Source: Escherichia phage vB_EcoM_G2248
Sequence record: MK327932.1
Length of the DNA stretch: 64,000 bases
Strand: one strand, 5' to 3'
Shown piece after piece: positions 8,124 through 30,884 of the stretch. Each line of letters starts with the position of its first letter. Within the stretch, counting starts at the first letter, position 1. Position numbers and translations under genes: made by a program. The notes beneath the pieces are model-generated. The model had not been told where the DNA came from and did not search any database. It saw nothing but the letters and a program-made list of their open reading frames with translations.

Positions 8124-8936
8124 TCAATCTACGTTAGTTACATAAACTTCTTGCGTATCAGAAGACTTACCACCTGAACGATCTAGGCAATAGGTCTTAT
8201 TCAACAGGACGCAGTTTAAATCATTCCGCTTGATAAAGTCAAGGAGATGATCATTTACCTTTCCCTTATGATGCGTGACATTACTGATACCAAACTGAAA
8301 ACCACGCGCCATAATCGATTCTACCCACTGATAGAATTTAATCTCTTCCTCGTCACTCCAGAACTTATTATATTCCGCAGAAGTGATAAGGTACGGCGGG
8401 TCCAAATAAACGAAATCACCTGGCAAGATCTCGATCTCGTCATAGCGACCAGACGTAAAACTGATTCGACCGTCTTTGTTTTCTTCCTTAAAATTCAGGA
8501 CACGCTCTACCGCGTTTTCGTTAAAAGTCCGGCGACCAAAATTAGCATTAAATTCTCCCTTCCTGTTATGGCGGTTAATGTTGCTAAAACTGTGCTGAAT
8601 CAGAACAAACAGAGATAGCGGATCTGGATTCTCATTATACTTCTTGCGGAATGCCATATAAGAATCTTTATCATCACGAGACAAACCATTCTCGGCAATA
8701 ATCAGCTTGATCGTAGAAACCGGATCAGGACACTCGTCAATCGCTTTGTACGCGTCAATTAAGCGGTGATCATAGTCATTAGCCAGAACACCCCCTTCGA
8801 CGTACAGAGACACGCTCAAGCCACCACAAAAGGCATCAACAAAGCGGTTATAGTGCTTAGGGAAATACTTACTAACACTTGGCAATAACTTTTCCTTATT
8901 GCCAGTATAGGGAATTAAACCTAATGCTTTCTTCAT
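8124..8936 (-). CDS. dam: DNA adenine methyltransferase (Dam family)
   Basis: NRFVDAFCGGLSVSL (motif I), DFVYLDPPY (motif IV), YNKFWSDEEE; close match to T4 Dam. Confidence 0.85.
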   Translation of the reverse strand: MKKALGLIPYTGNKEKLLPSVSKYFPKHYNRFVDAFCGGLSVSLYVEGGVLANDYDHRLIDAYKAIDECPDPVSTIKLIIAENGLSRDDKDSYMAFRKKYNENPDPLSLFVLIQHSFSNINRHNRKGEFNANFGRRTFNENAVERVLNFKEENKDGRISFTSGRYDEIEILPGDFVYLDPPYLITSAEYNKFWSDEEEIKFYQWVESIMARGFQFGISNVTHHKGKVNDHLLDFIKRNDLNCVLLNKTYCLDRSGGKSSDTQEVYVTNVD

Positions 8937-23780: not shown

Positions 23781-24356
23781 TTATTTTGGATCTGGGAAAT
23801 TCAATAGAGCATATTCTCCATAAAATTTCCTAGCTGCATTATCATAAGCGATTGCAGCTTCGATTTCTGTGTCATATTGTCCAAGAACATGTCTTTGTAG
23901 GTTGACCATTATACTAGCTCTCCATTTCTTACGCAAATCCTTCCTGTTACACTTACTAACACCCTTATACACACTAGAAAACTTTTTAGACTTCTTCTTT
24001 CTATTATGTTGATTTTGCGCGTCGGTTGCCTCCCTAAGATTTGGAGGATTGTTATTAGCAGGATTACCGTCAATATGATCAATTAATCTAACTTGCGTCC
24101 CATGTTCTAGAAACCAAACAACCCTATGCACGAATAGATGAACTCTAGGAAGACCGTCATCTCTACTATGCCAAAATCTAAGATGACCATCTTTATTTGT
24201 TCTGACTTTAACTAAATCGCCGTGTTTATATCTACTCCCTAATGGTCGTCCTTTGATAGCTTTACTATCGACTCTATAATATAAGATACCCTCTATATGA
24301 GCATATCTAAGTTTTATCTCGTTTTGTAGGGATTCATCCCAATATTTAAAAGCCAT
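23781..24356 (-). CDS. HNH homing endonuclease with C-terminal AP2 DNA-binding domain
   Basis: HNH motif LIDHIDGNPANNNPPNLREATDAQNQHN; AP2-like SSVYKGVS...WRASI...YDTEIEAAIAYDNAARKFYG. Confidence 0.75.
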   Translation of the reverse strand: MAFKYWDESLQNEIKLRYAHIEGILYYRVDSKAIKGRPLGSRYKHGDLVKVRTNKDGHLRFWHSRDDGLPRVHLFVHRVVWFLEHGTQVRLIDHIDGNPANNNPPNLREATDAQNQHNRKKKSKKFSSVYKGVSKCNRKDLRKKWRASIMVNLQRHVLGQYDTEIEAAIAYDNAARKFYGEYALLNFPDPK

Positions 24357-24401
24357 TTTATAATCCTCACAAAGCCAGCGATTAAGCTGGCTTGATTTTA
24401 G

Positions 24402-24791
24402 TTATACCGGGTCTGGATATACCTTTTTATCGAGTTCCATATGCGGTCCGTCTTTAAAAGTAACCCAATCAACACCGCAGATAACAGGAACACCCAATTC
24501 TCGACCAGCTTGTTTAAATGCATCCGCGATCATGCGGTAGTATTTCATGTTCCATGTATCCTTATCTTTCGGATACGCTACAACGTCAACCGCGAAACCG
24601 TGAAGATGACGAGATTTCATAGTCTTAGATTTACCTTCCGCAACATATTTCTTTTGCGTTTCTAGACTACGTACACCTTCCGTAATACCAAAATCGACCG
24701 GAGTCAGTTCTAACGCACGATGAACGACTTTTACCAGGTCAGGATGCACACCAACAAGCCGATCTTTGCTTCTTTGAGATAATTTAAACAT
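24402..24791 (-). CDS. peptidase M15 family peptidoglycan endopeptidase (candidate endolysin)
   Basis: Zn-binding motifs SRHLHGFAVDV and DGPHMELD typical of L-alanyl-D-glutamate peptidases; no signal peptide. Confidence 0.65.
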   Translation of the reverse strand: MFKLSQRSKDRLVGVHPDLVKVVHRALELTPVDFGITEGVRSLETQKKYVAEGKSKTMKSRHLHGFAVDVVAYPKDKDTWNMKYYRMIADAFKQAGRELGVPVICGVDWVTFKDGPHMELDKKVYPDPV

Positions 24792-24819
24792 TATTCACCC
24801 CCTTTGTGAGTGATAATAT

Positions 24820-25011
24820 TTAGATTCCGGCGATCCTGCATAGAGTTCTTGTATTAGCACCAATCAGGATCGCATTAACGACAACCATTCCCCAATCAAC
24901 CCACTGATTATTATAAATGCTAAACCCGTTTGCAAGACCAAATACAAGCATTCCGGTACACATACTCAGAGCAATAATCAACATCACGGTAAAACCAAAT
25001 GCAAATTTCAT
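24820..25011 (-). CDS. small membrane protein
   Basis: 63 aa, hydrophobic, ATG start. Confidence 0.4.
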   Translation of the reverse strand: MKFAFGFTVMLIIALSMCTGMLVFGLANGFSIYNNQWVDWGMVVVNAILIGANTRTLCRIAGI

Positions 25012-25012
25012 A

Positions 25013-25228
25013 TTATTTTCCTTTTCTCTGTTTACGTTTATAAAAGTAATACATTACCTCATCACGTCCGGTGATCCAACATGCTAGGGCGGTAAACAGG
25101 TTTACAATTCCCAACACACCTACTGACGCGGCGCTGTCAACAGACATAGGAACAGTAAAGGCCATAGCTAACATAGCAACGCCACAAATGACATTAAGCA
25201 CCATTATAATAAGACCGAAGAAAACCAT
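25013..25228 (-). CDS. small membrane protein
   Basis: Start placed at ATG 25228 with RBS GGAGGA; two hydrophobic helices. Confidence 0.4.
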   Translation of the reverse strand: MVFFGLIIMVLNVICGVAMLAMAFTVPMSVDSAASVGVLGIVNLFTALACWITGRDEVMYYFYKRKQRKGK

Positions 25229-25230
25229 TG

Positions 25231-25422
25231 TCAATCCTCCGACACAAGAAAACCAACAATCACGCCAGTGATAAGACATGATGCGCCGCTAATCAGACAA
25301 CCCGCACCAAGTGATTCCCACCAGATCAGAGAAGCGACAATAACACAGAATCCCCATACTACCGCAATCACAACATAGGCAAGGGTCGCCCAAAACATAT
25401 ATTTGTTCATAATAAATCCCAT
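25231..25422 (-). CDS. small membrane protein
   Basis: Hydrophobic 63-aa ORF. Confidence 0.4.
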   Translation of the reverse strand: MGFIMNKYMFWATLAYVVIAVVWGFCVIVASLIWWESLGAGCLISGASCLITGVIVGFLVSED

Positions 25423-25595
25423 TCACCAAACAAATAAGAAAAAAGCCATATCAACAGAAACGAGGCAATTGATCCGGCAAGCAAAATGATATTAGAGAAT
25501 CCGCCGTCTATCCAGGCGACAAAACAGAATACGCCAGTATAGAAGCATAAACCCATTACAAAGCATACTATAAGCAACCATAGACAAAACGCCAT
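25407..25595 (-). CDS. small membrane protein
   Basis: RBS GGAGGG before ATG 25595; hydrophobic. Confidence 0.45.
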   Translation of the reverse strand: MAFCLWLLIVCFVMGLCFYTGVFCFVAWIDGGFSNIILLAGSIASFLLIWLFSYLFGEWDLL

Positions 25596-25656
25596 AGAAA
25601 GCCCTCCATCGAGATAAATTAGTGCGGGTAGGGGACTGCACTACCCGCTTTGTTAA

Positions 25657-25815
25657 TCATCGCAGAGCGTGTTCTAGAACGATTCCACACCAACCGCTAA
25701 CCACACCAAAACACACAGCAACAAGCAGATTCATTCGGTCTTTTGGAATCATCGCAAACAGAACAACACCCACACAGAAAGCCATCACCATTGAAGTTAA
25801 CATTTGTTCAACCAT
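25657..25815 (-). CDS. small membrane protein (52 aa, below track cutoff)
   Basis: Own translation MVEQMLTSMVMAFCVGVVLF...; RBS AGGTG before ATG 25815. Confidence 0.35.
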   Translation of the reverse strand: MVEQMLTSMVMAFCVGVVLFAMIPKDRMNLLVAVCFGVVSGWCGIVLEHALR

Positions 25816-25817
25816 TA

Positions 25818-26156
25818 TCACACCTTTAAAGTCATAGACGCATAAACATTAATGCCAGGCCAGTTAGGATCGCAATTATACTCAACATCCCACAAATAAA
25901 GCGGTTTAGATGTATCAGCCAAGTTTTTAAAATCTTCTACCCACATTTCAAGGCTATATGATGGATAAACTAGGCTATCATATCCGCCGTAACGTTGGCC
26001 TACTGGTCGGTCAGTAAAAACTACATCAAGATCCGGTAATTCTTTTTCAAGGATAACCGCCAGCGCATAAATCAGACTGTCTTCCTTGTTACGCTGCCGA
26101 AGGACCGTTGTCAGTTGGTTTTTCTGGTTCACTAGCAAGCACCTCCACATTTTCAC
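25818..26156 (-). CDS. hypothetical protein (start uncertain)
   Basis: Track ORF overlaps the upstream ORF by about 68 nt, so the true start may be internal. Confidence 0.35.
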   Translation of the reverse strand: MKMWRCLLVNQKNQLTTVLRQRNKEDSLIYALAVILEKELPDLDVVFTDRPVGQRYGGYDSLVYPSYSLEMWVEDFKNLADTSKPLYLWDVEYNCDPNWPGINVYASMTLKV

Positions 26157-26409
26157 AGAATGAAATTTTCACAGACACAATTTTACCATAAGTGAAGAAT
26201 GAATATACATTATCGAGATATTCAACGTCACCTACAATCACATCAAACTGAGGATCAGCCACCGCCGCAACATATTCTACCAGTTCATCAAGAGAATGCA
26301 ACTTAATTTCATCAATTCGGCTGTATTTGGTTGCATCTTTGATTTTAAAACCACGTTCTTTCAGCTTATCAATTAGAATTTCACGCGGAGTTTCAAACAG
26401 TTTGCTCAT
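26089..26409 (-). CDS. hypothetical protein
   Basis: ATG 26409 behind conserved RBS GAGGATTATATTATG. Confidence 0.5.
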   Translation of the reverse strand: MSKLFETPREILIDKLKERGFKIKDATKYSRIDEIKLHSLDELVEYVAAVADPQFDVIVGDVEYLDNVYSFFTYGKIVSVKISFCENVEVLASEPEKPTDNGPSAA

Positions 26410-26430
26410 AATATAATCCTCACATTAAAT

Positions 26431-26628
26431 CTAAAATTTGTTAACGACGAATTGCATAATTAGACTAATCACAAACATTGCAAACCAAGTATAAATGCAA
26501 CAGATAAAAGCTACATACAATTCAATCTGGTCAGAGAATACACCGGGTAAAAGCATTAGCAAAATAACAACAGTAAAAACGCTAGCGATACCCGCAACAA
26601 AACCAATATCATTTTTACTAATCGTCAT
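26431..26628 (-). CDS. small membrane protein
   Basis: Hydrophobic; ATG 26628 overlaps the upstream stop. Confidence 0.4.
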   Translation of the reverse strand: MTISKNDIGFVAGIASVFTVVILLMLLPGVFSDQIELYVAFICCIYTWFAMFVISLIMQFVVNKF

Positions 26629-26825
26629 CAAGTCACCGTTTTGTAAAGAAACACAATAAAATCCCAGACAAAAAAGACAGTGAAAATAATCATCGTCAAG
26701 ACAATAAACACTGTCAGATTTTCATCGTTAGTTAATTCATGACCGTCCATCCATATAATCACCAGATAAAACATCGAAATCAAGGAGGCGAATACCAAAT
26801 TATAAAACTCTTCCTTTAATGACAT
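26628..26825 (-). CDS. small membrane protein
   Basis: Hydrophobic 65-aa ORF. Confidence 0.4.
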   Translation of the reverse strand: MSLKEEFYNLVFASLISMFYLVIIWMDGHELTNDENLTVFIVLTMIIFTVFFVWDFIVFLYKTVT

Positions 26826-26826
26826 A

Positions 26827-27009
26827 CTACACCTCGTCGCGGCTTAAGTCAACAGCAATTGCATACAGCATAATGAATATGCTAGCCGATCCGAGAATCA
26901 ATACACCCTCACATTTTGAAACTCGCTCATCAAAATGTAACATTATCCATCCGAGGATGTTAAAGGCGCAGACCGCGCCTATGTTCGCTAACCAATTAAT
27001 CTTTTTCAT
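26827..27009 (-). CDS. small membrane protein
   Basis: Hydrophobic 60-aa ORF. Confidence 0.4.
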   Translation of the reverse strand: MKKINWLANIGAVCAFNILGWIMLHFDERVSKCEGVLILGSASIFIMLYAIAVDLSRDEV

Positions 27010-27017
27010 AATATACC

Positions 27018-27344
27018 TTAGAAAGAAACAGTTTTCAAGAAATCCAGATTTTTAGTACCGAAAACAGAAAAGTAGTGTTTTCCTTTTTCGGTTTTAGAGA
27101 AAGCGATTGTCTTCTCTACATGGTGACGGAAGCCAGACAGACGATCACCCAGGTCAAGGCGGCAAGCGTAAGTAGTGCCGTTTTCGAAAGTAACCTCGAT
27201 TTGAGTTTTGTCATATTCGCTTTCATAGGCTTTTGCTGCCGCGTCCTGTGCTTTACGCTCGAAGTCTTCGAAGTGGAATACTTCGTTTGCGTTAGCGAAT
27301 ACAGAAGATTCAGAGAAGATAACTTTAACAGATACTGGTTTCAT
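27018..27344 (-). CDS. hypothetical protein
   Basis: ATG 27344 behind RBS AAGGAGTATCAAA and a PeSL-like promoter. Confidence 0.5.
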   Translation of the reverse strand: MKPVSVKVIFSESSVFANANEVFHFEDFERKAQDAAAKAYESEYDKTQIEVTFENGTTYACRLDLGDRLSGFRHHVEKTIAFSKTEKGKHYFSVFGTKNLDFLKTVSF

Positions 27345-27360
27345 TTTGATACTCCTTAGT

Positions 27361-27415
27361 AGTTCGTGTTTCGTTTCGATGGGTGTATTATGCTATACAC
27401 CCTCTCTCGTGTCAA
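27361..27415 (-). promoter_or_regulatory. PeSL-like early promoter plus conserved leader
   Basis: TTGACA at 27415..27410, -10 CATAAT, leader ACACCCATCGAAACGAAACACGAACT. Confidence 0.55.
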
Positions 27416-27423
27416 CAACTTTT

Positions 27424-27612
27424 TTAGTCTTTTTTCATAATTTCTAGAGCAGTTTCTACAGCACCTTTCCAACCTTCCCACATAATGGACATAGTAAGGA
27501 AGTTAAAGCACCCGCAGGAATCAACCTTTTTAGAGATAAACCATTCTACAAACGCTTCGCTCATACCATGCTCTTTAGCGGATTCGCGTAATTGTTCAAT
27601 TTGGTCTTCCAT
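27424..27612 (-). CDS. hypothetical protein
   Basis: Track ORF, ATG start. Confidence 0.4.
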   Translation of the reverse strand: MEDQIEQLRESAKEHGMSEAFVEWFISKKVDSCGCFNFLTMSIMWEGWKGAVETALEIMKKD

Positions 27613-27634
27613 AGTATCACCTCAACACTTAACG

Positions 27635-27829
27635 TTATTCAAACTCAAACGGTCTATTCATCCTATTGTAAAAGTACATATAACAAGCATAGTTATGTTT
27701 TGGTTGTACCGTATCAGATAGACACGCTTTTACAGCCTCGCGGTCCGATGGGTCTACACCCTCAGCTTTAAGTAATGCTAAAATCTGGTTATAGCGTACT
27801 CTTAGTTGTACTAATGGTTTATCCCCCAT
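27635..27829 (-). CDS. hypothetical protein
   Basis: RBS AGGGGG before ATG 27829. Confidence 0.45.
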   Translation of the reverse strand: MGDKPLVQLRVRYNQILALLKAEGVDPSDREAVKACLSDTVQPKHNYACYMYFYNRMNRPFEFE

Positions 27830-27838
27830 ATTACCCCC

Positions 27839-28060
27839 TTATAGTTGATCAGCGATGTAAGCGTGACAAGCGCGGAGTTTCATTAATGCACTACCTTTCA
27901 CTTCGCCTACGATGTTCATAACTTCTAAGCGGTCGGATGGATTCATCTTAGAGCACCAGATCTGGTTAGCCAATTCCAGTTTACTCATATTTGGTTCCAT
28001 CTCAAACAGTTCACGCTCAAAGTCGATAATTTCTTTTGCTGCGTCTTTAAAGTTAATCAT
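27839..28060 (-). CDS. hypothetical protein
   Basis: ATG 28060 behind GGAGAATCAAA-type RBS and a PeSL-like promoter. Confidence 0.5.
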   Translation of the reverse strand: MINFKDAAKEIIDFERELFEMEPNMSKLELANQIWCSKMNPSDRLEVMNIVGEVKGSALMKLRACHAYIADQL

Positions 28061-28074
28061 TTTGATTCTCCCGT

Positions 28075-28118
28075 TTCGTTGATGGTTGTATTGTAGGGGA
28101 GTTATCCTCCCCTGTCAA
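28075..28118 (-). promoter_or_regulatory. PeSL-like early promoter with palindrome AGGGGAGGATAACTCCCCT
   Basis: TTGACA at 28118..28113; G-rich palindrome in the spacer. Confidence 0.5.
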
Positions 28119-28126
28119 CACTTTTA

Positions 28127-28312
28127 TCAGAAATATGCAATATAGTTTGCCAGTCCTACAGAGTCATCATTCGGCATTGCTTTTACTGCCAGTTCAAACC
28201 CTACTTCAACTTTCTGTTTAGCGGATTCTTCGTTATAACCCCAGATTACCAGAATAGCTACTACGTTTTCTTTGCTTACTGCTTTCAGTGCTTTAGTGAT
28301 GCGACGTGCCAT
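28127..28312 (-). CDS. hypothetical protein
   Basis: ATG 28312 behind RBS ACGGAGAATCAAATT. Confidence 0.45.
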   Translation of the reverse strand: MARRITKALKAVSKENVVAILVIWGYNEESAKQKVEVGFELAVKAMPNDDSVGLANYIAYF

Positions 28313-28330
28313 AATTTGATTCTCCGTTTA

Positions 28331-28385
28331 AGAAAGTGTGTTTCGTTTCGATGGGTGTATTATGCTATAGGCCGGATCTGGTGTC
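28331..28385 (-). promoter_or_regulatory. PeSL-like early promoter plus conserved leader
   Basis: Near-identical to the copy at 27361..27415. Confidence 0.55.
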
Positions 28386-28412
28386 AACAACTTTTTTAAA
28401 AAAATTTTAGGC

Positions 28413-28437
28413 AATAAAAAAGCCACTCCGAAGAGTG
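28413..28437 (-). terminator. rho-independent terminator
   Basis: Hairpin GCCACTCTTCGGAGTGGC with a UUCG-type loop followed by TTTTTTATT on the minus strand. Confidence 0.65.
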
Positions 28438-28440
28438 GCT

Positions 28441-28588
28441 TATAGGGAAGGTAGCGAATCTTCCTTGTCTCCAACCTGCTAGCGGCCTAGCAAGTGAATG
28501 CTTTAGCGTACCGGATCGCCCATACGCTGCAATAAATGCGGCTAGGTGACGTCCAAATCATTCTAACCGCGCTGTCTTTAGTTCACTA
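28441..28588 (-). ncRNA. candidate structured non-coding region or small RNA just upstream of a terminator
   Basis: About 145 nt without a credible ORF, more GC-rich than its surroundings, several local hairpins (GGAAG...CTTCC, GCGTA...TACGC). Confidence 0.25.
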
Positions 28589-28807
28589 TTATTTATATCG
28601 CTTTCTCTCGCGACGTTTTTGATCTTCTTCCTTGATAGAGTTAAATGCATCAAAAAGACACATGACACTAATAATAAACATAACCGTATTTTCTACGGTA
28701 TCCCACGGCTTCGCATCAGTACAGATCCCCCAAACGGTAAGAAATGCAAATAAGGCAGAAGAGATCACAAGAATGATACTTGCTAAAATATAAAAAGTCA
28801 TTTTCAT
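28589..28807 (-). CDS. small membrane protein
   Basis: Hydrophobic 72-aa ORF. Confidence 0.4.
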   Translation of the reverse strand: MKMTFYILASIILVISSALFAFLTVWGICTDAKPWDTVENTVMFIISVMCLFDAFNSIKEEDQKRRERKRYK

Positions 28808-28998
28808 GGTTTTACCTCAATTCTTCGATATTCATCACACATCCACGCAGTAAGCAAGAATCCCAACACATAAGCAACAAAATACGTTAATGCTTCTTCT
28901 GGTTCGGTGCTATGCGCCATCATCAGACCAGCGAGAAAGGTCTTAACAATTACATTTAAAATAATTAGCCACGCAAATAATTTCATCGTTTGCCCCAT
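28804..28998 (-). CDS. small membrane protein
   Basis: Hydrophobic 64-aa ORF. Confidence 0.4.
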   Translation of the reverse strand: MGQTMKLFAWLIILNVIVKTFLAGLMMAHSTEPEEALTYFVAYVLGFLLTAWMCDEYRRIEVKP

Positions 28999-29207
28999 TT
29001 CGGTCGAGTCTTTTCAAACTTATACATTCCGTAACAATCTCGAATCATCCACGTAACAAGAGCACCAGTCAACACAGACAATACACAGAAGAAGTAAAAC
29101 GGTCCGGTTGCATTATCAACATGAGCAAGCCAGGTAAAGAAAACACATGCAAGGAATGTAAAGAACATCATAAAGCACAAGAAAGCGAAATATTTTATAC
29201 TACTCAT
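28983..29207 (-). CDS. small membrane protein
   Basis: Start placed at ATG 29207 with RBS GGTGG. Confidence 0.4.
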   Translation of the reverse strand: MSSIKYFAFLCFMMFFTFLACVFFTWLAHVDNATGPFYFFCVLSVLTGALVTWMIRDCYGMYKFEKTRPKWGKR

Positions 29208-29310
29208 AGCGCCACCATACAACAGATCATAAGAAACCCCAACGCAATAAGAATTGCATCAAATTTAGTGAACTCAGGTCCACCTATCAACATCATTCGT
29301 TCCTGTTCAT

Positions 29311-29550
29311 TCATAGATCACAGAGCCATCTTACAGCACCACATAAAGCGATCAAAAGACTAGGTATAAACGAGACTAAAACAAGACTACAAAAATCATC
29401 TAAGGTAACGCCGGAATAGCTACCTACTGTAACAACACCGATCATCAGACACAGAAAGAAAACAAATGCAATCAGAAACAAAGTATTGCTAAACAGTTTA
29501 GTGATCATTAGACACCCCACGACGATCAATTTCAAAAACTTTTTTATCAT
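29311..29550 (-). CDS. small membrane protein
   Basis: Hydrophobic; start moved to ATG 29550. Confidence 0.4.
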   Translation of the reverse strand: MIKKFLKLIVVGCLMITKLFSNTLFLIAFVFFLCLMIGVVTVGSYSGVTLDDFCSLVLVSFIPSLLIALCGAVRWLCDL

Positions 29551-29701
29551 CAACGAAGCATGTCACAACTGCATCGTTGACTTCCGCAAATTGTTGTGTT
29601 ACCCACTTAAGGTCAGAGCGAAACAATGTTCTATTAATAACAAATGTTTTACCGCTCTTATCCTTACCCATAAATTTTGCTTTAACCATATCAAATTCCA
29701 T
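29498..29701 (-). CDS. hypothetical protein
   Basis: Track ORF, ATG 29701. Confidence 0.4.
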   Translation of the reverse strand: MEFDMVKAKFMGKDKSGKTFVINRTLFRSDLKWVTQQFAEVNDAVVTCFVDDKKVFEIDRRGVSNDH

Positions 29702-29710
29702 ATTATCACC

Positions 29711-29869
29711 TTATTTGCTAATCGCTAAACCCAATCCGAAGAGAGCACCCGATGCTACAGTATACCCGAAAGTTTCAAATGCAGTAAAGATATCTAAGCC
29801 ACCAGCTAACAGAGTTGCAGTAAACAGAGTACCAGCTACGAACATAAAAGTTTTACCGATAAATTTCAT
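29711..29869 (-). CDS. small membrane protein (52 aa, below track cutoff)
   Basis: Own translation MKFIGKTFMFVAGTLFTATLLAGG...; RBS AGGAGAATCAAA; PeSL-like promoter directly upstream. Confidence 0.45.
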   Translation of the reverse strand: MKFIGKTFMFVAGTLFTATLLAGGLDIFTAFETFGYTVASGALFGLGLAISK

Positions 29870-29880
29870 TTTGATTCTCC

Positions 29881-29929
29881 TTTCGTTTGTTTGTGGGGGT
29901 ATCTTACTACCCCCGTTTCATGTTGTCAA
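29881..29929 (-). promoter_or_regulatory. PeSL-like early promoter with palindrome GGGGGTAGTAAGATACCCCC
   Basis: TTGACA at 29929..29924; the palindrome spans the -10. Confidence 0.5.
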
Positions 29930-29935
29930 CTATTT

Positions 29936-30310
29936 TTAAGAATATTTTACTTCGTCTACAATGTCTTTCATGACATTGATTTCCATTCCGGTCAGAACAC
30001 GTTGGAACATGTGCTGCACATACGCTTTCAGGTATTCATTTGATGGCTTACTATCGAAAGTCTTTTTAGTGTAGTAGTCATCACCGAAAGCTACTGTAAT
30101 TACATTTTCGTCGTCGTTCCAAGCGATATAAGCAAATTTGCCGTTATCCCAGAAGCGAGCACTAATTGCTACTTTTGTTGAATCGAATCCTACTTCGCTG
30201 TGAGATTCAAGAACTACTTGCGTACCAGTTTCTTTATGAATGTAGTAGCGGGATACTAAGTCAAAGTTACGGGTGTAGTGACATTCGAATTTATCTTTAA
30301 ACATCATCAT
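29936..30310 (-). CDS. hypothetical protein
   Basis: Start placed at ATG 30310 behind RBS AGGAGAATCAAA; the track ORF extends further. Confidence 0.45.
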   Translation of the reverse strand: MMMFKDKFECHYTRNFDLVSRYYIHKETGTQVVLESHSEVGFDSTKVAISARFWDNGKFAYIAWNDDENVITVAFGDDYYTKKTFDSKPSNEYLKAYVQHMFQRVLTGMEINVMKDIVDEVKYS

Positions 30311-30322
30311 TTTGATTCTCCT

Positions 30323-30376
30323 AAGTGTGTTTCGTTTCGATATGTGCATTATGCTATAGTCGTTTATGGTTGTCAA
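30323..30376 (-). promoter_or_regulatory. PeSL-like early promoter plus conserved leader
   Basis: TTGACA at 30376..30371, -10 CATAAT, leader ATCGAAACGAAACACACTTAGGAGA. Confidence 0.55.
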
Positions 30377-30381
30377 CACCT

Positions 30382-30412
30382 AAAAACAAAAAACCCCGAA
30401 AAATTTTCGGGG
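30382..30412 (-). terminator. rho-independent terminator downstream of 57B
   Basis: Hairpin CCCCGAAAATTTTTCGGGG followed by a T-run on the minus strand. Confidence 0.6.
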
Positions 30413-30419
30413 TATAAAA

Positions 30420-30884
30420 TTACAGTTTGGTCGTCCACTCCAGGTCTAGATCTTCGACATACTCATGAGATCGGACAATCTCTAAATCGAACTCTAGGTC
30501 AGTGCCAAATTTACGCGCACCAACATCATAAGAAAGCGTGATATGCGGTACATATTCAGGATAATCCCACGTCGCACCTAAAGCAGTGCCGATATCGTGT
30601 CTGAATTGCATGTAGTCGCTTTCAAATGCCAGCACAAGCGCATTAGTACCGGATTGAGTTTCAAACACTTTCAGATGGCATAGAGAGCCTAAGAACTTCT
30701 CCCCTTCTTCTGGGATAAACGGAACATAGACACGAGAATATAAGATAGTGCTATGCAGTTTATCACGAGGAACGGCATTAGGCAGATCGTAGAACTCCTG
30801 CAATTTTTCAATGCGGTCTAGTGTATCCTCAGTGAATTTAACCGCCGCATATGTACCTTTAACGGATTCTCTAAACGGGGTCAT
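30420..30884 (-). CDS. 57B: 2H phosphoesterase (Acb1-like anti-CBASS nuclease, gene 57B position)
   Basis: Two H-x-T/S-x motifs (HSTILY, HITLSY); located immediately downstream of 57A as in T4; track TTG start moved to ATG 30884. Confidence 0.65.
   Translation of the reverse strand: MTPFRESVKGTYAAVKFTEDTLDRIEKLQEFYDLPNAVPRDKLHSTILYSRVYVPFIPEEGEKFLGSLCHLKVFETQSGTNALVLAFESDYMQFRHDIGTALGATWDYPEYVPHITLSYDVGARKFGTDLEFDLEIVRSHEYVEDLDLEWTTKL

Follow-up and report, generated by a model that had tools for sequence, protein, structure and literature searches.

A genus-specific set of fourteen small predicted membrane-protein genes beside the endolysin gene of an RB49-like coliphage

In this article, I describe a cluster of very small genes at positions 24820-29869 of a 64,000-nucleotide stretch of Escherichia phage vB_EcoM_G2248 (record MK327932.1; the whole 64-kb stretch is referred to below as the window), and weigh what their products may do. 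The window belongs to a Krischvirus genome, that is, an RB49-like T4-type coliphage of the Straboviridae, and on the RB49 map is equivalent to the run from the nrdH region to the baseplate genes. The interval corresponds to RB49 open reading frames (ORFs) 103 to 124, 22 genes that all lie on the minus strand between an M15 endolysin gene at one end and ORF125, 57B, 57A, gene 1 and gene 3 at the other. When the minus-strand translations were scanned with a 19-residue Kyte-Doolittle window (KD19) and a maximum of 1.6 or more was taken as hydrophobic, 14 of the 22 genes passed, encoding products of 36-74 amino acids (aa), 13 of them with two hydrophobic segments and ORF121 with one. They fall into cluster A (ORF124, 122, 121, 120, 119 and 118; 29869-28589), in which dmd is embedded, cluster B (ORF112, 111 and 110; 27009-26431) and cluster C (ORF107, 106, 105, 104 and 103; 25815-24820), and the eight soluble ORFs sit between or inside these clusters. 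A preliminary description of this DNA had announced a dense array of about 15 tiny membrane proteins, with at least ten ORFs of 52-88 aa; the ORFs are indeed present at the coordinates it gave, on the minus strand and tightly packed, but the count comes to 14, the array is discontinuous, and both ends of the size range move, since a 36-aa ORF (ORF121) has to be added and the 88-aa ORF at 25013-25279 (ORF104) most likely starts at 25228, giving 71 aa, with GGAGG 7 nucleotides (nt) upstream and in agreement with the annotation of relatives. The two ORFs of 52 aa that it had rescued from below 60 aa (ORF107 and ORF124) are real, conserved genes, and the overlapping stop and start codons that it reported occur at six gene junctions, five of them in the form ATGA.

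The concentration of hydrophobic products is specific to this place in the genome. In RB49, the hydropathy threshold is passed by 14 of the 22 genes of the interval and by 6 of the 119 other annotated genes of at most 110 aa (Fisher p = 1.2e-9), so that 14 of 20 small predicted membrane genes, or 70%, are found within 3.1% of the genome length. The same strand carries dozens more small early ORFs of equal base composition that are not hydrophobic, and this, together with the coding signatures given next, excludes the composition artefact that had been set beforehand as the outcome that would overturn the claim of tiny membrane proteins. Apart from local N-terminal differences in four families, 10 isolate genomes preserve every one of the 14 frames intact, and a divergent metagenomic lineage, including contigs of up to 175 kb, keeps the full gene order from Acb1 to endolysin. 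Against that lineage, the ratio of nonsynonymous to synonymous substitution rates (dN/dS) is 0.05-0.53 in the 13 families with estimable dS, at amino-acid identities of 48-99%; among close relatives the pooled ratio of the corresponding polymorphism proportions (pN/pS) is mostly 0.08-0.32, and variable sites are distributed over codon positions 1, 2 and 3 as 66:36:114. A Shine-Dalgarno motif (at least 4 nt, placed 3-12 nt upstream) precedes 11 of the 14 starts, as compared to 15% of the other ATGs in the interval.

The products also look like membrane proteins in more than their hydrophobicity. Over the 13 hairpins, the inter-helix loops hold 5 lysine or arginine against 25 aspartate or glutamate residues, and the termini 44 against 25 (p = 2e-5), a bias that under the positive-inside rule predicts both termini in the cytoplasm and the short acidic loop in the periplasm (N-in/C-in). 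For one family, ORF110, AlphaFold2 was given a 16-sequence alignment and predicted a two-helix hairpin (helices at residues 6-32 and 38-65; mean pLDDT 85.6). In the GenBank record of phage W115, 11 of the 14 ORFs already carry the label 'putative membrane protein', and the W115 paper used TMHMM v2 to detect transmembrane domains. Thymine occupies 46% of second codon positions in the membrane ORFs and 30% in their soluble neighbours; cysteine makes up 3.6% and 1.3% of residues, respectively, with tryptophan and phenylalanine also enriched in the membrane ORFs, and of their cysteines some, such as C29 and C50 of ORF118, are invariant and others are not. Taken together, the hairpins with their charge pattern, purifying selection, Shine-Dalgarno motifs and confident model make it very likely that the 14 ORFs are real, selected membrane-protein genes, as the preliminary description had proposed.

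Where alleles have diverged, the hairpin layout is retained and specific residues are kept. ORF110 exists in two allele classes with about 33% protein identity that share an invariant S17, P29, Y47 and W49; a 65%-identical allele of ORF118 conserves the loop motif WDxVEN, the FDAF motif and the charged tail; and in an 80%-identical metagenomic allele of ORF104 the second helix and tail are identical. Allele replacement affects ORF107, ORF111, ORF110, ORF118 and the soluble ORF116, and is mosaic: in the window, ORF107, ORF111 and ORF116 (27839-28060) have 77-86% DNA identity to most relatives and are flanked by genes at 96-99%, and an ORF110 allele class lies at 8594-8797 of relative L014. Between ORF104 and ORF107, phage JK32 exceeds RB49 by about 300 nt (1429-2124 of sequence L004), a span with no annotated genes, and phage Skers has two extra small annotated ORFs, beside ORF107 and ORF113 (2134-2238 and 3859-4002 of L005), so judging by these two isolates the region still gains and loses material.

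Outside the genus the trail ends quickly. Positions 24400-30400 are matched by about 60 Krischvirus genomes, 53 of them with near-complete query cover at 95-99% DNA identity and the closest, phage vB-Eco-KMB43, at 97.2%, whereas a DNA search with a sensitivity of 65-70% gave matches beyond the genus only for the endolysin and for the soluble ORF115-117. Each ORF matches its own PHROG, with no function assigned there, so that there is one orphan family apiece. None of the 14 has a significant match in Pfam (E up to 1) or NCBIfam (E up to 0.1), nor do the 10 searched against PADLOC models match any of them, and ORF104, the one compared with PDB sequences, gave no significant match. ORF120, ORF104 and profiles of ORF110 and ORF118, run against collections of 5.8 billion and 1.84 billion proteins, returned Krischvirus-type sequences only (for ORF120, Krischvirus-type records among 5.8 billion protein clusters), and a Foldseek search of viral structures with the ORF110 model retrieved only the orthologue of phage JSE. 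The proteins are without detectable relationship to one another as well: in a 25-sequence set with the 14 ORFs and T4 e.2, e.3, e.4, e.7 and trna.4, all-against-all BLASTP and phmmer comparisons gave nothing below E = 0.002.

The possibility that such an array is a general property of this locus was considered and rejected, since its counterparts hold far fewer membrane ORFs: 4 of 13 in the equivalent interval of T4, 1 of 16 in Kanagawavirus and 2 of 13 in Tulanevirus, all three with unrelated genes there, and no array adjoins the homologous endolysin of a Slopekvirus phage. The high density of membrane ORFs at this locus is therefore specific to the genus. No outgroup with alignable non-coding sequence at the locus was found. 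In T4, the interval from e to 57B holds nudE, e.2-e.8, tRNA genes, segB, trna.2-4 and ipI, with ipII just past gene e, and this different gene set marks the locus as one of the variable 'hyperplastic' regions of T4-type phages; an Rfam scan of the whole window found no RNA family, and the window has no tRNAs. The genes themselves are not new: about 60 public genomes and PHROGs already list them as hypothetical proteins, and they are of a known kind, being orphan accessory genes for small membrane proteins in phage variable regions. However, no description of their clustering was found in the literature, and both Arbiol et al. (2010) and the W115 paper pass over it without comment; a paper on the 'holins of coliphage ASEC2201' proved unrelated to the locus.

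The cassette promoters that had been noticed between the ORFs are also present, in the form of a 61-nt repeat and of sigma-70-type promoters (Table 1). Two copies of the repeat (family D1) are 90% identical and a third, at 30327-30387, is a 67% copy; these are the PeSL cassettes of RB49 and phi1, for which strong sigma-70 early promoter activity and terminator activity have been shown and gene shuffling has been proposed (Arbiol et al., 2010; PMC2839356). Five minus-strand promoters, starting at 30376, 29929, 28387, 28118 and 27415, have 10 or 11 of 12 matches to TTGACA-17 nt-TATAAT, with CATAAT, TACAAT and TAAGAT among their -10 hexamers; across 12 relatives the hexamers do not change, in contrast to the spacers, and the record of phage GEC-3S annotates promoters at the same places. 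With the terminator-like hairpins at 28441-28420 and 30413-30393, this arrangement suggests four transcription units, in which the promoter at 29929 would serve ORF124, dmd and ORF122-118 as far as the hairpin at 28441-28420, that at 28387 ORF117, that at 28118 ORF116-114, and that at 27415 ORF113, cluster B, ORF109-108 and cluster C. The membrane genes are thus probably expressed early in infection. A promoter-like TTGACA-17-TATTAT at 25234-25206 was treated as incidental because it is not conserved in divergent relatives. The sole exact T4 late-promoter motif on the coding strand of the interval, TATAAATA, lies at 28590-28597 (minus strand), at the extreme end of ORF118 and just upstream of the terminator and PeSL copy.

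Table 1. Positions of the membrane ORFs, predicted regulatory elements and selected neighbours in the window (TM, transmembrane).
Feature	Positions	Strand	Length (aa)	Remarks
Endolysin, M15 L-alanyl-D-glutamate-type	24402..24791	-		Pfam Peptidase_M15_4; phrog_465
ORF103 homologue	24820..25011	-	63	two TM helices; last gene before endolysin; dN/dS 0.17-0.27
ORF104 homologue	25013..25228	-	71	two TM helices, basic tail YKRKQRKGK; dN/dS 0.09-0.27
ORF105 homologue	25231..25410	-	59	two TM helices; ATGA start overlaps ORF106 stop; dN/dS 0.20-0.21
ORF106 homologue	25407..25595	-	62	two TM helices; dN/dS 0.33; GGAGG 7 nt upstream
ORF107 homologue	25657..25815	-	52	two TM helices; divergent allele, 83% DNA identity to most relatives; pN/pS 0.21
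ORF110 homologue	26431..26631	-	65-66	two TM helices; AlphaFold2 hairpin
ORF111 homologue	26628..26825	-	65	two TM helices, very acidic loop; divergent allele, 86% DNA identity to most relatives; dN/dS 0.33
ORF112 homologue	26827..27009	-	60	two TM helices; dN/dS 0.22-0.26
ORF113	27018-27344	-		soluble; LPD25 domain, E = 3e-14
PeSL repeat copy	27366..27426	-		promoter 27415-27387; would head the ORF113-ORF103 unit (clusters B and C)
Promoter TTGACA-17-TACAAT	28090..28118	-		upstream of soluble ORF116-114
PeSL repeat copy	28338..28398	-		promoter 28387-28359; predicted to drive soluble ORF117
Terminator-like intrinsic stem-loop	28420..28441	-		part of PeSL cassette; predicted end of cluster A operon; terminator annotated at equivalent place in GEC-3S
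ORF118 homologue	28589..28807	-	72	two TM helices, highly charged C-terminal tail; dN/dS 0.15-0.21
ORF119 homologue	28804..28986	-	60	two TM helices, acidic loop; dN/dS 0.14-0.32
ORF120 homologue	28983..29207	-	74	two TM helices, basic C-terminal tail; dN/dS 0.05-0.17
ORF121 homologue	29204..29314	-	36	one C-terminal TM helix; KD19 2.57; ATGA start overlaps ORF122 stop; dN/dS 0.16-0.25; phrog_15282
ORF122 homologue	29311..29508	-	65	two TM helices; KD19 3.02; dN/dS 0.46-0.53 vs divergent relatives; phrog_17225
dmd, antitoxin against RnlA/LsoA	29498..29701	-		soluble, embedded in cluster A; Pfam Dmd E = 2e-15; phrog_2102
ORF124 homologue	29711..29869	-	52	Gly-rich two-helix hairpin; first gene of dmd operon; KD19 1.64; pN/pS 0.08; AAGGAG 7 nt upstream; phrog_16462
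Promoter TTGACA-17-TAAGAT with G/C-tract stem-loop	29901..29929	-		upstream of ORF124, dmd and ORF122-118; promoter annotated at equivalent place in GEC-3S
57B (anti-CBASS Acb1)	30420..30884	-		Pfam Acb1 E = 1.5e-51; upstream bound of variable region

The soluble genes in and around the array deserve a few words. Acb1, Dmd and the LPD25-domain protein ORF113 place counter-defence genes in or beside the array; 57B is labelled 'RNA ligase' in RefSeq records, yet it is a clear member of the Acb1 family, and the LPD25 domain is otherwise found in large polyvalent proteins of phages and conjugative elements. ORF117 carries a DUF7421 domain, and ORF115/116 and ORF117 (27630-28063 and 28142-28325) have 73-84% DNA identity to Escherichia coli and Shigella phages of about 50 kb (for example SECphi27, tunus and pSf-1), a likeness that indicates recent gene exchange across unrelated phage groups. 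Directly 3' of the endolysin lies a homing-endonuclease gene with HNH_3 and AP2 domains (23781-24356, minus strand), which is annotated in KMB43, JK32 and PTE-Eco09 and absent from the site in the other seven isolates examined; the last 39 nt or so of the endolysin agree with the window version solely in these three phages and in pEJ01, as expected for co-conversion during homing. Further along the window, the GC skew changes sign at about 36 kb, where the minus-strand early genes give way to plus-strand baseplate genes.

What might fourteen such proteins be for? The reading I favour, tentatively and as something short of probable, is that they are accessory genes of conflict at the cell envelope, serving superinfection exclusion, counter-defence or both. 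According to this proposal, host sigma-70 RNA polymerase would transcribe the 14 genes from the conserved early cassettes, so that the products would appear as infection begins and enter the host inner membrane, where every hairpin would have a binding partner of its own, embedded in the membrane or inserting into it; likely candidates are the DNA-injection machinery of superinfecting phages, in the manner of T4 Imm and the tape-measure protein, and a membrane-associated host defence or abortive-infection effector. T4 Imm, itself small and located in the inner membrane, binds the incoming tape-measure protein and thereby blocks superinfection (10.64898/2026.03.06.709160, preprint), and the 14 ORFs resemble it, and HK97 gp15, as small helical phage proteins of the inner membrane, predicted here to be early, for which the partner in the known cases is a membrane-inserting tape-measure protein. 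They differ from Imm in having no sequence relationship to it or to its Pfam family, Imm_superinfect, which none of them hits at E up to 1, and the model of Imm has additional helices and places its N-terminus in the periplasm. Superinfection exclusion is plausible, since an Imm homologue is missing from RB49: when the window, relative L014 and the whole RB49 genome were searched by tblastn with T4 Imm, no hit had an E value below 8.8. Directly after uvsX in RB49 come a small ORF and then gene 43, with genes 42, beta-gt, imm and imm.1 missing from between them. It is the combination of counter-defence neighbours, diverged alleles, the missing Imm and the mechanism by which Imm acts that tips the balance towards envelope-level conflict, and in T4 the proteins IpI and IpII, encoded in and just past the equivalent interval, counter type IV restriction (10.1101/2023.04.06.535777).

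Several observations pull the other way. None of the 14 ORFs matches the Imm family of Pfam, an NCBIfam model or, for the ten searched, a PADLOC model. The 14 genes are present in every relative examined and near-fixed in the genus, with alleles being replaced and a few small insertions, and such near-fixation is more in keeping with a housekeeping function during infection than with counter-defence genes of the classic fast-turnover kind. Variable residues are not biased towards the periplasmic loops (0.40 in loops as compared to 0.32-0.37 elsewhere), the early timing is read from promoter sequence alone, and guilt by association is a weak argument in a phage with a densely packed early region.

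The main rival to a role in conflict is the modulation of host membrane machinery, in which the hairpins would tune or block host transporters or respiratory or envelope-synthesis complexes, with no competitor or defence system as target. Most characterised bacterial small membrane proteins act by tuning membrane complexes, and AcrZ, MgrB, SgrT and KdpF are regulators of one or two helices that bind larger membrane complexes, although these are host-encoded, singly scattered and not homologous to the 14 ORFs. The architecture, size and predicted early timing would be equally expected if the host were the target, and near-universal retention in the genus with intact frames and dN/dS of 0.05-0.3 for most families fits a constant host target; such modulation is plausible too. 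However, if the need were a general one, it would be unusual to see fourteen separate regulators in a single genus and none of them in other T4-type genera with the same host; alleles that have diverged to 33-65% identity suggest a changing target; and the neighbours are counter-defence genes. I regard host takeover as a rather unlikely explanation for the array.

Besides superinfection exclusion and transporter modulation, the preliminary description had listed holin or antiholin-like activity among its candidate functions. In a lysis scenario, some of the hairpins would be holins, pinholins or antiholins for an acquired endolysin, the best candidates being ORF103-107, and ORF104, ORF120 and ORF118, and the attraction is easily seen: cluster C adjoins the endolysin, which is an M15 peptidase and not a T4 e-type lysozyme, and class II holins and pinholins such as S21 of phage 21 (65-95 aa) likewise have two transmembrane helices, a highly charged C-terminal tail and an endolysin neighbour. 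That format (two helices in fewer than 100 aa, here 60-75 aa, with a charged C-terminus) is found in ORF104, ORF120 and ORF118, the other ORFs being without the charged tail, and ORF120 and ORF104 give sub-threshold matches to Phage_holin_3_6 (E = 0.076) and Phage_holin_3_5 (E = 0.18), which fall far short of Pfam cut-offs and leave no holin-family match significant. Against this, RB49 already carries the full T4 lysis set of t holin, rI antiholin, pseT.2/pseT.3 spanins and rIIA/B, and the homologous endolysin of the Slopekvirus phage has no such array beside it. The promoters ahead of the clusters are of the sigma-70 type only, with no late promoter motif found upstream of cluster A, B or C, and the late-promoter-like TCTAAATA at 24817-24824 lies 26 nt upstream of the endolysin start and downstream of all membrane ORFs.

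This last motif overlaps, and forms the 5' arm of, a hairpin at 24783-24832 (minus strand; -12.3 kcal/mol, z = -3.3) in which the Shine-Dalgarno sequence and AUG of the endolysin are paired, and whose sequence is almost invariant across 12 relatives. The arrangement looks like that of T4 gene e, where early transcripts that read through are not translatable, in contrast to late ones initiated within the hairpin. A hairpin of this type would uncouple endolysin translation from the early transcripts arriving from upstream, so that the membrane ORFs and the endolysin would be expressed at different times, a timing deduced here from nucleotide sequence only. With T4-type holin, antiholin and spanins in place and an endolysin that appears to be regulated separately and late, a holin or antiholin-like function is disfavoured, and I judge lysis control to be decidedly improbable for these hairpins.

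A bolder form of the conflict proposal would make the array a multi-specific immunity battery, in which hairpins born de novo from a T-rich variable region each neutralise a different membrane-inserting attacker (a competitor's tape-measure protein, a pore-forming colicin or a host membrane suicide effector) and in which translationally coupled neighbours may assemble into hetero-oligomers; this is a long shot, and I rate it no higher than lysis control. As for the remaining notion, that T-rich and recombination-prone sequence yields hydrophobic ORFs by chance and without selected function, it could draw on the thymine excess at second codon positions, on the four families searched, for which up to 5.8 billion protein clusters contained no homologue beyond the genus, and on the relaxed ratios of ORF122 (0.46-0.67), ORF106 (0.33-0.67) and ORF124 (0.69 against relative L017), but it is very improbable given frames kept in every relative examined (alleles only 48-65% identical included), dN/dS well under 1 for most, third-position substitution bias, Shine-Dalgarno motifs, the positive-inside charge pattern and invariant residues retained across diverged alleles.

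Returning to envelope-level conflict, it is worth asking how the array compares with what has been described at such loci. T4 e.2, e.3, e.4 and trna.4 are also hypothetical, predicted membrane proteins encoded between endolysin and 57B, but there are only four of them, they are mostly larger (61-130 aa) and they have no detectable sequence similarity to the 14 ORFs. A further comparison is with the PeSL-flanked ORFans in the hyperplastic regions of RB49 and phi1, which belong to the same phage group and share the cassettes and the allele replacement; the study of these regions covered gene shuffling and expression and did not mention the dominance of membrane microproteins (Arbiol et al., 2010; PMC2839356). 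At present, then, the locus stands as a well-documented set of uncharacterised genes and not as a new kind of system. Nevertheless, few viral genes are as poorly understood as those for small phage membrane proteins, and the handful characterised so far, such as Imm, govern the entry of other phages. Here, 14 short, clonable, conserved and mutually unrelated candidates are available within 5 kb, adjoining proven counter-defence genes, in a phage group that is used in therapy cocktails. Should the hairpins have arisen de novo, they would offer a clear viral example of the birth of membrane genes; and if even a few of them act as exclusion or anti-defence factors, they would account for some of the ways in which RB49-like phages compete, and would add new mechanisms.

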